The notes beneath the pieces were generated by a model that worked only from the letters and a program-made list of their open reading frames with translations, did not search any database and had not been told where the DNA came from. A stretch of 64,000 bases of DNA from Podarcis gaigeae. Its lineage: Eukaryota. The stretch lies in the NCBI GenBank assembly GCA_964106915.2, contig OZ066914.1; one strand, written 5' to 3'. Position numbers and translations under genes: made by a program. Positions 18,901 through 62,439 of the stretch are shown here, piece after piece. Numbering within the stretch: the stretch's first letter is position 1; the number at the start of each line of letters is the position of its first letter.

Positions 18901-21900
18901 AGCCTGATCTCCCATGAATTTGCCTCATGCCTTTCTAAAATCATAAACATAAGTCAGTGACCATCAAGACTAGCTTTAGATGGTCATCTTGTGACATTGT
19001 TCTATACATATGTGCTGTGTGAAATGTGTTTCCTTTCCTCTGTCCTGAATTTTCCAACATTCAGCTTCATTGCTTCATTGGATTGCCCTAAGTATTATGA
19101 AATGGAGGTGGGGCACAACAATTTTCTCTGTACCAGGAATATTTTTTAAAAATGCTTTTTTCACTGAGCCACTTTTTTTGTTAAACTGAAAAGCCCCAAA
19201 TATGGTAACCCTGGAGAGAAAACGCTCCAGATTCCTAATAATTTTGGTTGCCCTTTTCTGCATCTTTTCTAGTCCTACAATTTCTCCCCCTCCATTATTT
19301 TTTTAAAAAGATGGAGCAGCCAGAATTGTACATAATATTATTGTAGCACCCTTACACAAACACTCTCCAACAGTATCTGTACATTGAGGCCCAGGGCAAT
19401 CAGTCCAGGACAATAGGCAGCAACATTTTATTTACTTATTTATACTTTTGTGATTAGGAAAGTGATGGGAAAACACATAGAAAAGTGTGCAATGAGCTCA
19501 TGATTATAGGTAAGTGTCAGGTCTGCCTCTAGATCCCAGCTCACAGAGGACCAACGCCCGGTGGATATAATGTACAAAAGTCTTTATTGAAGTTTAGTTT
19601 CCATTTCAAAGCTCTGGGCGCGCAGACCCACGTCTTGACGCTAGACCGGCTAAGTCCCCTCTGACTCACTGCTCCACCTACACCAGTTTAAGATTCTAGC
19701 CCGGCTCCACCTCCTACGCTGTTCTTTCCTTCGCTGGGTCCTTCTGCCCTCTGGGGTTTCCTCCTTCCTGGACTCCTCTGACGCTGAGCCTCCTGAGTCT
19801 TGCCCCTCCCTCCGGCGGGCTTTAGGACCTGGCTCCCTTCCCTTCCCGGGCTCCCCGCTGTGCCGCGCTCCTGTACATTTGAACTTGGCGCGCGCGCCCA
19901 GCCGGTGACTTTCCTTCTGACCGTTTCCCCGCTTCCTGATGTGGGCGTTGCCAAACCTGACTCCTCTCCTCCCTCTGGTGGTGAGGACACTGGTCCCGAC
20001 TCCTGGGACTCCCCCTCCCCACTGCGCTCTGGTGGAGAAGCTGGTCCTGATTTCCAACTGCTGCTCAGGGACTCCCCGCTGGCCCCTTCCTCCTGGGGCT
20101 TCCCCCCTGGAACCCCCCTCACTCTGGCCACCGGCGCTCCCTTCTGTGAGTCCTCCGATTCGCTAGAGAGGCTTGTGGAATAACTCTGGCCACTGTCACT
20201 GCCTGCGCCCCCCTCGTACTCCTCCTCCTCACTCTCCATTTGCTCCCCCTCCTGTGTCTCTCCTTCTGAACCCCTGACATCCATCCCCCCTCGAAGCCCC
20301 CCCTTCCCCCCTCCCCCTCTTCAGGTGCGGGTTCCGGGTGCTCTAGAGTTGTCGGGGTGAGTTCAGGATACAGTTCGTCCCCCGAGGCGTGCAGCCAGCG
20401 TGATAAGTCCGGAAAGTCCTCCATGGGCTCGTCGACTGCGATTCCCTCCGCTTCCATCTCCTGGGCGGTGTGTTCGAAATCTGAGGCCGCCCCCAAATCA
20501 CTCAAAACCCCTTCTCCCCCTGTCGCCTGAGGTGACGCCACTTCCCAGGGTCCCTCCGACATGTCTCTGCGCCATCCCACTTCGGGTTGGTCCTCCCACC
20601 AATAAGATCCCCCCGTGCCAAAACCTGAGAGCGAGCCCTCTGGGGAGCTGCCTCCCGGAGCCGAGTCCTCCGCTGACGAGAAACCCCGGAAAGTGCTGGC
20701 CGATAGTGTGGGTGTGAACAGACAATCATCGAAAAAGCCCGCCGGCATAGGCTTGTGCGGGAAAAGTGTATGGAATTCTTCCTTGAGCAACTGCTCCTCC
20801 AATGCGTAATCCCGCACCCACCTGTTGGCGCTGGCCGGGGTGTCCTCTGTGGCGAGAAGATATTCAATCCCGTCCTCCCCCCACCTTGAGTCTAAAATCT
20901 CTGTGGCTTCATTAAGCGTCCCCGCTCTCGGCGACCCTCCTTTTCTGGGTGCTTCCCTGAGCGGGTCTGGTGCTGTCCCTGGTGCCTGAAACCTGTGGGG
21001 CCCTTTGTAGGGTGTGAGCACTGATCTATGAAAGACCGGGTGCATTCTGGACCCCTCCGGGAGTGTTAACCGGAAGGCCACTGGGTTGATCTGCGCCTCT
21101 ACTTGGTAAGGCCCTAGCTGCTTGTGCCCTAGCTTCTTCTTGGCCAACGATCTGGCCGGAACTGCCTGGGCTGCTAACCAGACCCAGTCTCCTACCCGGA
21201 TGTCTTCCCCAACCCTCCTGTGTCGGTCTGCCTGCACTTTGTAAGCCTGTTTCGCCATCTCTAACTGCCTCCTGAGCTGCTCGTGGATCTCCTGCAACTC
21301 CGCTGCCACGGCCTCTGCTCCCTGCGGCTCCCCCTCCCTCACTTTCTCCAAACCCGGGAAGGTTCTGGGATGCCGCCCATTGTTGGCGAAAAACGGTGTC
21401 ACCCCCGTGGACCCGTGCTTCGTGTTGTTGTAGGCAAACTCGGCCAACGGTAGATAGTCCACCCAGGTCGAGGGCTGCTGGTTCGCGTAGCATCTCAGGT
21501 ACTGCTGCATGATGGCGTTGACTCTCTCCGCCTGTCCGTTAGTCTGCGGGTGTCGCGCCGACGCCAGGCTGACCTTGACGTTCAGGAAACCCATCAGCTT
21601 TTGCCAGAAGTTGGATATGAACTGGCGCCCCCTGTCGGACAGGATGGACCGTGGTAGGCCGTGCACCTTGAACACGTGTTCTATAAACAGCTTGGCGGTC
21701 TGCTCGGCTGTGGCCACCTTCGCGCAAGGAATGAAGTGGGTCATCTTGGTGAACAAGTCTACTACCACGAGTACTGCCGTCTTGCCTCTCGAGCTGGGCA
21801 GATCCGTGACAAAGTCCAGGGCCACCCTCTCCCACGGTTCGAACGGTGCCTGTAGCGGTTCCAACAGGCCCGCCGGCGGCTGGTGTACTGGTTTGGCCCT

Positions 21901-24900
21901 TTGGCAGGTGTCGCACCTATTGACGTATTCCGCGACATCCCCCCTCATCTTGGGCCACCAAAGGTCTCTGGCTACTAGGTCCACCGTCTTCTCCTTGCCA
22001 AAGTGTCCCGCGCTGGGCGCGTCGTGCAGCTGTTGCAGGACCCTCGCGCGGAGGTTGTCTCCCGGCACGTAGAGGGCTCCTTTGCGGATGAGCAGGCCGT
22101 CGCGTATTTGGAAGTCGTCGTCCCTCGCCGTGCCGCTACGCACCTCCTCCATCTTGGATCGCGCGAATAAGTCCGTCTGCAGCGCGCGACGCACCACGTC
22201 CAGGTCCACCGTGGCTGACGCGCATGCCCACGCCTTTGGTGCGAAAATATGCTTGGCCGCCGCCGGCGCCTCTTCTTCGAGATACTGCGGTTTCCTGGAC
22301 AGCGCGTCCGCCATGATGTTGTTGTTTCCAGGGATGTATTCTATTCTGAAGTCGAAATCTGCAAATAACTCCGCCCAGCGGATGTGTCTCTGGTTCAGGA
22401 ACCTCGCCGTGCGCCAGTACTCCAAGTTCTTATGGTCTGTACGGACCTGCACCGTGTGTTTGGCCCCGACGAGGAAATGCCACCACGCCTTGAAGGCTGC
22501 ATGTATGGCCAGTAACTCCCTGTCCCAGATGGTGTAGTTCTGCTCCGACTTGCTGAGTTTCCTGGAGTAGAAAGCGCACGGCCTCCAGTCCCCCTGGTGG
22601 TCTTGCTGCAACAGGACAGCCCCCACGGCCCTGTCTGACGCGTCCGTCTCCACTCTCATGGGCCTGCTGGGGTTCACGTGTAGCAGGTGTTCCTCGGACA
22701 CGAAGAGGTGCTTGAGCTTCTGAAAGGACTGCTCTGCCTGCTCCGTCCAGATCAACTTCTTCTTCTTGGAACTGAGGGTGTCAGTGATGGCCGCTGTCTG
22801 CATGGCGAAACCTTTGATGAACTTGCGATAAAAGTTGGCAAAGCCGACAAACCTCTGGACTTCCTTTCGATTGCGTGGGCTCTTCCAGTCCAGCACTGCA
22901 CGTACTTTGGTACTGTCCATGGCGAGTCCCTTGTCGGACAGTTTGTAGCCCAGGAAGTCCACCTCCGTCTTGTCGAACTGGCACTTCTCCAGCTTGGCGT
23001 AAAGCCGGTGCTCCCGCAGCCGCTGCAGGACTTCCCTGACATCTCTCTCGTGAGCCTCCGGCGACTCTGAGAAGATGAGGATGTCGTCCAGGAAGCAGAC
23101 GCACTTCTTGTAGAGAAGACCCGCCAAGACATGATGCATGAATGCTTGAAAACAGTGGGAGCCATTTTGTAATCCAAAAGGCATAACTCTATATTCATAG
23201 GTGCCCAGCGGCGTAAACATGGCCGTTTTCCACTCGTCACCTTCCCGCACGCGAATGAGATTGTACGCTCCGCGCAGATCCAACTTGGTAAAAATGCGGC
23301 CCTTCCGCACCGTCGCCAGCAGGTCATCGATCTTGGGCATAGGGAAGGCTGAGGGCTTGGTTTTCGAATTTAAGACGCGGAAGTCCACGACCAGCCTCTT
23401 CCCGCTTCTTTACAAAGAATACAGGGCTGCCCCCCACCGCCTTGGACTCTCGGATGAATCTCCGCTTCAAGTTGTGATCTATGAACTCCCTGAGCTCCTG
23501 CAATTCATCCTCAGACATGGAATACAGTTTCCCCGTCGGGAGCGTCGCCCCCGGCAGGAGGTCAATCTTGCAGTCGTAGGGTCTGTGGGGAGGCAGCTTG
23601 TCCGCTTCTTTCTCGCAGAAGACCTCCAAAAACTCTTTGTACTTGTTAGGTACCGCTTGCAACATGCCCAAGTTCAGCTGTGGTCCATCCTCGTGCCCCT
23701 CATCTTCCAAGTCAGCCAGGATGCAGTGTTCTGCGCAGTAGGAGGAGCCGAAGGTCAGTTGCCGCTGGTACCAAGCTAATGCTGGGCTGTGCCTATCCAG
23801 CCAACTCATTCCCAACACTATGGGCGTGTCTGACAGGCGGGTGACGTTGAAGCTGATGACTTCGCGGTGATTACCAATGCGCATCACCATTGGCGGCGTC
23901 TGCTGTAGCACTTGCCCTCCCAGTAGCTCCCTGCCGTCCACCGTGACGACGTTCAGAGGTACCGTCGCTGGCAGAAGGGCTATGCCATGTTGCTGGATGA
24001 ACTCCATGCCTATAAAATCTGCATTGCTCCCAGAGTCAATGGTAATGGGGATTTCCACAGTGAGCCCATTGGGAAGGTGAAGGGATGCGGTGAGCTGCAC
24101 TACTGGTGTGGGTAGGAGGGGGTCTGTGGGCTGTAACATTACTGGGGATTGCTTCACTGACTTGTCTGGCTGGCCCCCAGTGACTCCATTTCCAGCCAGA
24201 CAGTGGAGTTTTCCTGCTGTGATTCACTCTGCTGAACTGCTTCTGTTACTGTCGCTGCGGCTGCAGTGTGCTTGTGAAACCGCTGGGGACACTCTTTCGC
24301 CATGTGCTGAGCACTGTCGCAGATGTAGCACTTCCTGGTCCCTCTAGGAGGCTTCATTTTGACTGCTCCCGGCGTTAGGGCTCCGGCTGTGGACTGAGCC
24401 TTAGCACCACCTATCTCCATCGGCTCCTCTCCCCCTCCCAGCGGAGGCATGGATCGAGCGCGCGCCACTTCCTTGGGAAAGGGGGGCGGTCCTCTCGCTG
24501 TCGTGCGTCCCCAATGCCCTTCCTCCTTGTCCCAAGGGCGTCCTTCCAGCCTAACCCCAATCGTGAGTGCCCTCTCCACAACGTCTTTGGTGGTTTGGGG
24601 TCTCTCTCCCCTTGCAATTTCGTCTTTCACAGCTCCGTTCAGCCCCTCCCAGAACAGGTCTCTGACGGCAGACGATTCTCTCTCCCAGCTCAGTACATTC
24701 ACCAATGCAAAAAGGCGTGAATGATATTGCCTTACAGTGGCTCTGCCTTGTCTTAGTCCGTGAATCTCTCTCCTAGCGATATCCACATCAATCTCAGACA
24801 AAAAACACGCATCCATCACTTTAAGGAAGGCAACCGCATTTTGGAGGGCTGGATCCTTATCTCTCCAGAGATTGCGCAGCCAGGATTTAGCCTCTCCCCG

Positions 24901-27900
24901 CAAATGCGATACTATAAATCCCACTTTCTCTTCCTCTCTTCTAAAGTCGTTCTCCAGTAGTTGCAGTGCATATACTACATCTGCTCTGAAGTTAGGATAC
25001 TGCTGCAGGTTCCCATCGAAATGCGACACAAGGCTCCCTCCTCTGTTCCCCAGCCCAATCCCCTCTGGTCTGGCGGCCGGTAGCCCTTGTGCAGTCAGCA
25101 CTTCTAACCTGGTTCGCAGATCCTGGCAGGTAGCAGCTGCTTCCTGTTCCTTCTTTCTGGACGCCAAAATCTCTGCGTTCAGCTGCGTCACGGCGTTTTG
25201 CAAACTTGCTACCTTCTCTTCGGTAGTCATCTTTCAGGTATTCGTGAGCTCGCGAAGTACCAATCTTCACCCCTCACTGCTTTCCCGCACGTCACGAGGT
25301 GATAAAATTGGTGGAGTCGGAGAGAGGGGACTTACTGTCAGGTCTGCCTCTAGATCCCAGCTCACAGAGGACCAACGCCCGGTGGATATAATGTACAAAA
25401 GTCTTTATTGAAGTTTAGTTTCCATTTCAAAGCTCTGGGCGCGCAGACCCACGTCTTGACGCTAGACCAGCTAAGTCCCCTCTGACTCACTGCTCCACCC
25501 ACACCAGTTTAAGATTCTAGCCCGGCTCCACCTCCTACGCTGTTCTTTCCTTCGCTGGGTCCTTCTGCCCTCTGGGGTTTCCTCCTTCCTGGACTCCTCT
25601 GACGCTGAGCCTCCTGAGTCTTGCCCCTCCCCCCGGTGGGCTTTAGGACCTGGCTCCCTTCCCGGGCTCCCCGCTGTGCCGCGCTCCTGTACATTTGAAC
25701 TTGGCGCGCGCGCCCAGCCGGTAACTTTCCTTCTGACCGTTTCCCCGCTTCCTGATGTGGGCGTTGCCAAACCTGACTCCTCTCCTCCCTCTGGTGGTGA
25801 GGACACTGGTCCCGACTCCTGGGACTCCCCCTCCCCACTGCGCTCTGGTGGAGAAGCTGGTCCTGATTTCCAACTGCTGCTCAGGGACTCCCCGCTGGCC
25901 CCTTCCTCCTGGGGCTTCCCCCCTGGAACCCCCCTCACTCTGGCCACCGGCGCTCCCTTCTGTGAGTCCTCCGATTCGCTAGAGAGGCTTGTGGAATAAC
26001 TCTGGCCACTGTCACTGCCTGCGCCCCCCTCGTACTCCTCCTCCTCACTCTCCATTTGCTCCCCCTCCTGTGTCTCTCCTTCTGAACCCCTGACAGTAAG
26101 ACATAAGCAAGCAAGGATAAATGTTCACTGTCGTATAAACTCCCCACAAACAAATCCGAATGAATGTTCAGTAAAGACTGGATGTAATCCAACATATTCA
26201 TTAAACGCTGTGCAAACTAATCTGGATGCTTAGTAAATAGGTCGCCTGGAAGAGCCCAGAGATTCTCTCACACTGATGGCAATGAACTTGGCCAAAGAAG
26301 AGGGTGAGCACTTGCCAGTCAAGGCACAACACAAAGTTGTCTCACAGACAGCTCACAGAGGAATTTGCTCATCTCTCAGCAGCTGCTCACAGATCCTCCT
26401 CCTCTACACTCTCTTTGTTCTTTCCACTTCTCTCTCACATTACTGCTACTTCATTTTTTTATCAATTTCTCCTTCAAAGATCTGTAACTACAAAGTTCAA
26501 ACTAAAAGCCCACAACAGTTGACTAGCTTGGATTTCAAGGATTCCTAATGGATTATTTTAGGAGAAAAATGATTAAAGGAGCAAAAAGCTCTTTGAAGAG
26601 CTGAACTCTTATGTGTCTTGATTTTCCTGGGCATGAAATTTTGCTCCCATTTTTATTTTCACAGAGGAGCCAATTTTCTGTTACCTAGTAGGGAGAGGAA
26701 GGATGGAAAGAGGTAGACAGTTAGTGTTGTCAGAGGATACATGAAAAGCAGAAGTAATGAGATGTGCCTTTCCATCAGTTTATTTCCTGTCTTGAATATG
26801 CCAGTAAACATATTAATTTATTACCTGTCAGATCCTCTGCACAGATAGCTCACTGTGAAGTTGGAGGTTAGGAGATGTCAGAGACTATAAAAGCCCTACC
26901 TGTCAGTGCTCTTGGCCTTTTCTTCATTGTCAACACCAGGGACTGAAAAACAAACTTGCTCTCCTTCCTGAAACATAGGCAAAAAACAAGAAATAAGAGC
27001 TGCTTTATAAATAAAGGATTGCTTCCACTTCATAGCAATTACTTAAGGTCTTGTTGACATGGCTGAAACCAGTGTGGGGCTGATTCAGAGGGATTACATT
27101 GAAAATGTGAGTTTTACCACCTCCTTAAAAAAAGAAAGTACTCCTGAATTAACAGCGACCTGTGCTTATGCAGTTATTTCAAAGGTTGTCTCCCCACCCG
27201 CAAGGTTCTTTGGATGGTATTTTACTCCCCACTTCCTGGTGAGTTTTTACAAATAGAACAATTCTGGAAGGAAGTCTTGAAAGATATATCTCAGATTACA
27301 GGTCATACCCTGGTCTTAGCCTTACTTATTCTATATACTTCAGATATGGACCAGTTAAGAAGTAAGGAATTGATAAAACGTTTATTAACAGCAGCTAGAA
27401 TGGTCACAACCAGAACCTGAAAAACATTGCAAACAGTCACAATGGGAAAGTTGTTGCAAAAACTGAAGGTGGCAAGGAGACAGAAAAAACAAGATAATTT
27501 TTACATTGTATGGTATGATTTTATTAAATATATAAATGAAACAACACATAGACAAGGAATACCGTAGAAATGGTGTAGATATTATGTATTATGAAATAAG
27601 ATGTATGTATTTACCTCCCTAGTGACCCATTTGTTAGTCTTGTCATGTTTTATTATTTATGTTTGCACAAAGAAATTATGATAATTGTTTTGTGAATGCT
27701 TTGTTACTGATTTTGTAACAGAAAATCAATTTTAAAAAAGGGAAAACTAGTGAGAGTGCACCTCACAAACTGGTTATGGGTCCCTCATGATTTAAAGGAA
27801 TAATTTTGAATTGGCTGATGGGCTGCCCCTGCTATAGACAATATATTATGACCATTGGCCATGTGGCTGGGGCTGATGGGAAATTAAAGGCACCATTGGG

Positions 27901-43692: not shown

Positions 43693-44436
43693 AGATGCCA
43701 TAAACAGATCTTTTCACTCCAAGGAGGCCTCTTAATTTATCATTTCTTTAAAAACTGCCAAGTCTCAAATCTGACATTCATCTATGTTTCCATAGCATTA
43801 TTTTTATACATTTTGTTCAATTTTAGGCATTTTGCTACAGCACATATGTACTTTAACAAAACGTAAAACTATACTTTATAAGAGCTACATAACCTGAAGG
43901 ACTACTCTGTAAACCCAAACATTTTTTATATGACTTGAGAAATTCATGGGAGTTCTACCAAAATCCCTTTTCACATATATAATTTTGAAAAAGTACACTT
44001 GATCAGACTAGGCAAGACAGCATGAGCTACAGCCTTTCACTCCGTTAAATTTGCTTAAGCACCATTTGTTCCAGAAGGTCTTAAGCAAACATATCTGGAT
44101 GCAGGATAACTATCCTGGTATTTTGTTTCTTCAGATCTTATGTGCACTCTGATAAAGTAAGCTTCTTAACCCCCAATACAGCACATTGACCTCCAAGTAC
44201 AGAATGCAAATAGATACTGTAGATGAACTCTGGCAAGTGTATAGTTCAGTAGAAAAAATGTTATAGGAAACGTTTCAGCTTTTTTTTTTAATATATACTT
44301 TTCCCTAAAACATAGCTGTCCAGGTTTTTAAATCACAGTTTTCAAATATAAAATATGGATACCCTCCTCTTCCCCCCCACCCTCTCGAACCAAAATATAT
44401 TTACAAAGCAGTTAATAAAACGGTTGCAACTGAAAT

Positions 44437-62439
<18,003 letters not shown>

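Follow-up and report, generated by a model that had tools for sequence, protein, structure and literature searches.

Self-priming of reverse transcription is described as a common feature of the LTR retrotransposons that make up the Tf1/sushi group, in yeast as well as in vertebrates (10.1101/2022.12.06.519325; PMC6317226; PMC4600332), and the available portions of these sources present it as shown experimentally for fission-yeast Tf1, and as predicted or implicated for the vertebrate members. Tf1 uses 11 primer bases and its RNA is cut by RNase H between bases 11 and 12, as stated in the accessible part of PMC7175516, which agrees with the original prediction for the present locus, where Tf1 was said to prime with its first ~11 nt after RNase H cleavage. 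The RNA of Tf1 has been described, in the accessible text of 10.1101/2022.12.06.519325, as a three-duplex structure that includes a leader-side duplex. Hence, the mechanism discussed below is not new: it has already been published for the Tf1/sushi group, including its vertebrate members.

Here, we analysed a window of 64,000 nucleotides (the whole stretch of DNA under study) from the lizard Podarcis gaigeae (assembly GCA_964106915.2, contig OZ066914.1), which carries an LTR retrotransposon on its minus strand. We propose, with a probability of about 0.88 as judged from the sequence, that this element primes reverse transcription with 11 bases of its own LTR, like fission-yeast Tf1. Tf1 and Tf2 (Schizosaccharomyces pombe) and Tj1 (S. 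japonicus), as far as the available descriptions go, likewise possess a non-tRNA primer-binding site (PBS) complementary to an 11-nt LTR segment, an R/U5 helix adjoining the PBS and a chromodomain-type integrase. These three elements lack the Gag CCHC knuckle and the -1 frameshift, according to the accessible text of 10.1101/2022.12.06.519325, whereas the lizard element has the CCHC knuckle and likely the frameshift. It also differs from them by a 2-nt spacer before the PBS, a leader-side duplex that we did not find, a degenerate chromodomain and a long Pol tail running through U3. The borders and genes of the element are as follows:

26095-19515, minus strand: whole element, Ty3/gypsy LTR retrotransposon.
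25336-26095, minus strand: 5' LTR, 760 bp, TGTCAGG...CCTGACA.
19515-20279, minus strand: 3' LTR, 765 bp.
26096-26100, minus strand: target-site duplication CTTAC, 5' side.
19510-19514, minus strand: target-site duplication CTTAC, 3' side.
24154-25230, minus strand: gag ORF of 358 aa, encoding a capsid domain and a CCHC zinc knuckle.
24143-24214, minus strand: likely -1 frameshift signal (candidate), GGAAAAC plus a stem, a weak match to RF01090.
23402-24223, minus strand: pol, first part, with the protease and the start of RT.
20119-23409, minus strand: pol, second part, with RT, RNase H, integrase, a GPY/F-SH3 region, the degenerate chromodomain and an acidic tail.
20749-20910, minus strand: degenerate chromodomain, found with profiles built from relatives.
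20280-20322, minus strand: polypurine tract region, before the 3' LTR.

The two LTRs are 99.3% alike, differing by five transitions and one 5-nt indel, and the CTTAC sequence occurs on both flanks, so that the insertion appears to be young. The Pfam domains are arranged in the Ty3/gypsy order, Gag-PR-RT-RH-IN, between the two LTRs; the zf-CCHC domain of Gag scores above the Pfam cut-off, and RNase H motifs were found in the pol ORF. Since a frame change near 23400, in RT, interrupts the pol gene of the window copy, Pol from another copy would be needed. The gag and pol frames overlap at 24154-24223, where the best Rfam match is the PEG10/Edr signal RF01090 with 20.8 bits (E 0.082), i.e. below the gathering score of 45, and Gag-Pol is likely made by a -1 frameshift at this overlap. 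No match was found for the chromodomain region in Pfam or PDB; the profiles built from relatives gave 31.9 bits, or 17.2 bits without the three closest lizard proteins, as compared with 4.2 and 5.1 bits for the best of 500 shuffles.

The nearest proteins are from Podarcis muralis, with Pol sequences 87-92% identical to that of the element, which points to a lacertid host. The closest family (P0001-P0004) is devoid of PF00385, its chromodomain being decayed, and the proteins of the families at 50-62% identity carry PF00385. In an RT-RH tree, the element groups with proteins from Podarcis, Anolis, Xenopus, Astyanax, Pleurodeles and Lissotriton, in a clade of 17 rows (SH-aLRT 96). This quick IQ-TREE analysis (72 rows, midpoint root) was offered 55 of the 89 extracted loci and 20 proteins, and it comprised neither the named references sushi-ichi, Amn-san and Tf1 nor a named V-clade sequence. 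The rows labelled as having a self-primed PBS cluster on the tree, a clustering that carries no weight because few of the unlabelled rows had their PBS examined. Judged on domain order and tree, the element is a Ty3/gypsy element, placed among vertebrate chromodomain-bearing elements. With the Sushi group it shares the PEG10-like frameshift signal (a sub-threshold match in the lizard element), and its LTR ends fit the TGTYANR and CNTNACA motifs, apart from a single deviating position in the 5' motif, as these motifs are given in the available text of PMC3601003. It differs from that group by its degenerate chromodomain, and from the Sushi LTR model of the same source, as far as its text is available, by a U3 that is G/A-rich and coding instead of T-rich (PMC3601003). 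Elsewhere in the window, we noticed overlapping ORFs of 168-218 aa at 44352-45093 and a GC-rich block (62%) at 56001-58000.

The sequences presumed to operate in priming are the following:

25508-25512, minus strand: TTAAA, a weak TATA-like box located at -29 relative to the first primer base, with a putative promoter role, also in the U3 reading frame.
25481-25486, minus strand: GTCAGA around the predicted +1 A (25483), a putative initiator.
25473-25483, minus strand: predicted self-primer, the 11-nt AGAGGGGACTT, complement of the PBS.
25472, minus strand: 12th primer/PBS pair, present in the window copy and variable in sister copies.
25443-25451, minus strand: R/U5 arm, GGTCTGC core at 25449-25443, whose predicted partner is the LTR end; variable in sister copies.
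25404-25409, minus strand: AATAAA polyadenylation signal, at +75 from the predicted start.
25339-25347, minus strand: U5 arm, GCAGACC core at 25347-25341, partner in the predicted R/U5 helix.
25334-25335, minus strand: 2-nt spacer GT between the LTR end and the PBS; relatives peak at a 2-nt spacer.
25323-25333, minus strand: primer-binding site AAGTCCCCTCT, of the non-tRNA type.
25471-26055, minus strand: sense ORF across U3, 194 aa, with its stop at primer bases 11-13, homologous to the C-terminal tail of sister Pol proteins.

The PBS of elements primed by a mature tRNA starts with TGG. On the minus strand, the 5' LTR ends with ...CCTGACA at 25336, followed by G (25335) and TAAGTCCCCTCT (25334-25323); as originally predicted, no TGG occurs within a few bases after the LTR, and the element does not fit the tRNA-primed Gypsy type, in which a PBS starting with TGG lies near the LTR. 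The window holds no tRNA gene, and an Rfam search gave no match at the PBS or the primer. The 12-nt exact complement that had been announced inside the 5' LTR, AGAGGGGACTTA, is indeed present at 25483-25472. It lies upstream of the LTR end, at a distance of 148 nt; its only other copy in the whole window is in the 3' LTR (19651-19662). When the LTR was shuffled 20,000 times with its dinucleotides preserved, a complement of at least 12 nt to a word starting 0-3 nt past the LTR was obtained in 39 cases. As another internal position, 24113 in gag, also reaches a 12-nt complement, such a complement is not rare as such, and the evidence therefore lies in its position. The working primer is likely 11 nt long (25483-25473), as in Tf1, and not 12, because base 12 varies in sister copies and the relatives peak at a 2-nt spacer. 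GT serves as the spacer in many relatives too.

Concerning the promoter, the positions claimed for TTAAA (25512-25508) and AATAAA (25409-25404) were found to be correct, but TTAAA makes a poor TATA box, with at least two mismatches to TATAWAW. The best initiator match is at 25483, where GTCAGA (25486-25481) fits the vertebrate initiator pattern BBCABW, and RNA polymerase II probably starts at or very near A25483. In an RNA starting at 25483, bases 1-11 are predicted to pair with probabilities of 0.75-1.0, and base 12 with a probability of 0.51; the primer/PBS duplex is predicted at -19 kcal/mol, and the predicted fold of the 181-nt region is better than that of 198 out of 200 shuffles. From the Tf1-like three-duplex structure, both the central duplex and the U5-side helix are predicted, and the best leader-side helix by the PBS has 5 bp; a leader-side duplex adjoining the PBS was not found in the window and is not evident in most of five relatives. 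A gapped complementarity (25499-25484 with 25322-25310) lengthens the primer/PBS duplex in the window copy. Sister copies differ there, and we rejected this upstream extension as a required feature.

The U3 of the 5' LTR is open in the sense direction, an openness that is weak evidence by itself since 82 of 2000 shuffles had it too. The encoded sequence is similar to the C-terminus of the sister Pol P0003 (66% over 192 aa, E 3e-74), is 28% identical to the Pol C-terminus of a second family, and also matches four shorter database proteins. Among the 55 lizard proteins examined, which are predicted gene models with possible false introns, 26 (15 of the window family and 11 of the second family) keep the Pol frame when passing from the polypurine tract to U3; P0081 and P0004 leave the Pol frame at the polypurine tract/U3 junction, as the window copy does, and the remaining proteins end before the junction. 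The tail, for which neither Pfam nor Atlas gave a match, terminates with an arginine-rich stretch and the motif W-S-x-A-R-[IV]-L-x-W-C. We rejected the possibility that the U3 ORF is a stand-alone gene, as the sister copies hold it as the end of Pol and no Pfam or Atlas match was obtained. The U3 frame also occurs at 20279-19650, in the 3' LTR, where the 5-nt LTR indel changes the frame. Because Pol reads through U3 up to the primer in most of the sister models, both the TTAAA box and the primer would also be coding. The reading frame that contains TTAAA is conserved, and its coding role may be the sole reason why this box is kept.

To compare the window copy with its lizard sisters, contigs from four public runs with four species labels were aligned to 25210-25570, with a variant threshold of 4%. 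No position of 25473-25495 is among the variants listed (at least 4%), three runs covering the primer and run X13 lacking cover at 25444-25495. Likewise, no position of the PBS is among the variants listed (at least 4%), which is weak evidence as contigs break near the LTR end. Base 12 of the primer (25472) varies in three runs (X1, X3 and X10), and this variable base next to a stretch (25473-25495) without listed variants fits an 11-nt primer with a 2-nt spacer. A variant at 25469 is private to the 5' LTR of the window. Compensatory change between primer and PBS, which the original prediction had proposed to look for, did not appear within the lizard family in the contigs of the four runs: the pattern there is conservation, not covariation. 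More distant relatives, described below, have other letters, with 21 words each matched by its own LTR. As for the second helix that had been announced, GGTCTGC and GCAGACC do lie where they were placed, but they are not constant in the family. The GGTCTGC arm varies among sister copies at 25446, 25447 and 25450 and by an insertion; the U5 end, at loose contig ends, is variable as well. The variants of the two arms lie on different contigs and form no linked pair, so that covariation was not observed; the R/U5 helix is therefore predicted for the window copy and unproven for the family. At the protein level, the gene model P0005, whose Gag is 60% identical, has DSKSPL over the PBS, in the same way as the window frame. 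The window copy reads SEGT-stop at the end of its tail and other sister proteins end with SDGAS, SDEAS, SDSTS or SESAS, endings that point to different letters at bases 4 and 8 of the primer.

A profile scan yielded loci 32-48% identical to the window element, 79 from metagenomes and 12 viral; no relative was detected when viral contigs were scanned with a single protein. Sixty of these relatives and the window element, i.e. 61 of 92 loci, had enough upstream sequence to be searched for TNACA followed by 2 nt and then by at least 9 nt of perfect complement to the sequence 40-500 nt upstream. This arrangement occurred in 27 of the 61 loci (26 relatives and the window), as compared with a mean of 1.0 and a maximum of 3 in shuffles, and with 7, 6, 18 and 11 loci for spacers of 0, 1, 3 and 4 nt, respectively. 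It was not observed in the other 34 relatives, some of which may lack an LTR. The complements of the 26 relatives measure 9-13 nt. Their PBS sequences comprise 21 distinct words, every one of which has its match in the LTR of the same element, five being near-copies of one family. In 18 of 24 relatives, a TATAWAW box with at most one mismatch begins 26-38 nt upstream of the complement (control windows: 3, 4, 3 and 4), which places the complement at the transcript start; it is worth noting that both the 2-nt spacer and this TATA window were picked after the results of a first loose scan. That scan (any CA, spacers of 0-3 nt, regions of 2.9 kb) had low power per locus (p 0.07 for the window) and was replaced.

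Both LTR ends were available for 12 relatives, three of which lacked a shared CA end; in the other nine, the LTR end could be fixed independently, from two LTR copies. In eight of these nine, a perfect complement of 8-12 nt begins 2 nt past the LTR, with p ≤0.007 each for Watson-Crick pairs only and p up to 0.126 when G-U pairs are allowed; the ninth, L023, shows no complement at the LTR end (5 nt only). All three LTR-bearing metagenome loci of the vertebrate clade of the element, namely L005, L012 and L054, have complements, of 10, 10 and 9 nt, and weak boxes 27-30 nt upstream (CTTAAG, GTTAAAC and TACATATA, respectively), similarly to CTTAAAC in the window. Only in L005 does Pol come close to the primer, with a stop 68 nt before it. 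We also noticed a 50-nt perfect inverted repeat in L013 (arms 93 nt apart, ~3.5 kb upstream of RT) and, in L025 (222-741 and 8622-10137), an element within a tandem array with a unit of ~170 bp.

Together, the placement of the element, the missing TGG, the position of the complement and the geometry of the relatives support the proposal that the lizard element self-primes. The pathway would operate as follows. RNA polymerase II would start at or very near A25483, and RNA bases 1-11 would fold back onto 25333-25323, stacked on the R/U5 helix. The RNase H of the element would then cut after base 11, by analogy with Tf1. From the 3' end thus freed, the reverse transcriptase would synthesise DNA over the 2-nt spacer, U5 and R. 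The resulting strong-stop DNA of ~139 nt would finally jump to the 3' R.

Self-priming could also involve a longer primer, with an upstream start near 25490-25499 and a pairing extended into the leader, which we regard as very unlikely. Adding 7 or 16 upstream bases does add leader pairs (predicted -64.6 and -76.5, as compared with -57.9 kcal/mol), and Tf2 is regulated by alternative start sites, according to the available text of PMC5341516. However, the extension is gapped and, as indicated by loose contig ends before 25501-25502, sister copies differ there; furthermore, the complements of the relatives are 9-13 nt long and lie 26-38 nt from the TATA box, and the best initiator match is at 25483. 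Even less likely is the priming by a host RNA, be it a cleaved tRNA half or another small RNA, the LTR complement being a by-product. The 3' end of a mature tRNA needs a PBS starting with TGG, unlike that of the window, and a conserved host primer would not give 21 PBS words that each follow their own LTR. Half-tRNA primers do exist in Ty1/copia lineages, but the survey that reports them, in its available part, describes their use as exclusive to Ty1/copia (PMC6317226).

The least likely explanation of all is that the complement occurs by chance, or is kept only for the coding of the Pol tail or the masking of GTAAGT (25335-25330). There is an overlap between the primer and the final codons of a conserved frame, a second 12-nt complement exists in gag, and GTAAGT, which comprises the spacer and the start of the PBS, matches the splice-donor consensus and would be covered by the primer pairing. 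Yet selection on the encoded protein cannot make the stretch complementary to a PBS that is itself non-coding; Pol stops ~295 nt before the primer in L012 and L054, where the complement is still there; and the element would be left without any primer. A primer assembled by splicing need not be invoked either, as the primer is contiguous in the DNA. Thus, we favour self-priming with 11 LTR bases.

As regards the Pol tail, we tentatively raise the possibility, which we consider rather doubtful, that in the lacertid lineage a single stretch serves as promoter and transcript start, as self-primer and as the last Pol codons, and that a tail of ~360 residues replaces the chromodomain in nuclear entry or chromatin targeting. 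The tail would then run past the decayed chromodomain, the polypurine tract and all of U3 to end at the primer. A precedent for a Pol extending into the 3' LTR is provided by the plant centromeric chromoviruses of CRM group A, as far as the available text of PMC3059260 describes them. The CRM elements are plant elements primed by tRNA-Met and endowed with a CR motif, whereas the lizard element keeps a chromodomain remnant and its tail has no Pfam or Atlas match. Our literature search, which covered neither most subscription papers nor Repbase/Dfam, found no published description of a U3-spanning Pol tail in such elements, and no paper on the lacertid family of the window element. If this reading of the tail were true, the tail would be the vertebrate counterpart of the CR motif that the plant CRM elements encode in their LTR, and the evolution of the primer would be tied to the protein sequence.

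More generally, self-primed elements would presumably escape control by tRNA 3' fragments. With its 11-nt primer, near-identical LTRs and many living relatives, this young lizard family appears to be workable for a first direct test of self-priming in vertebrates.
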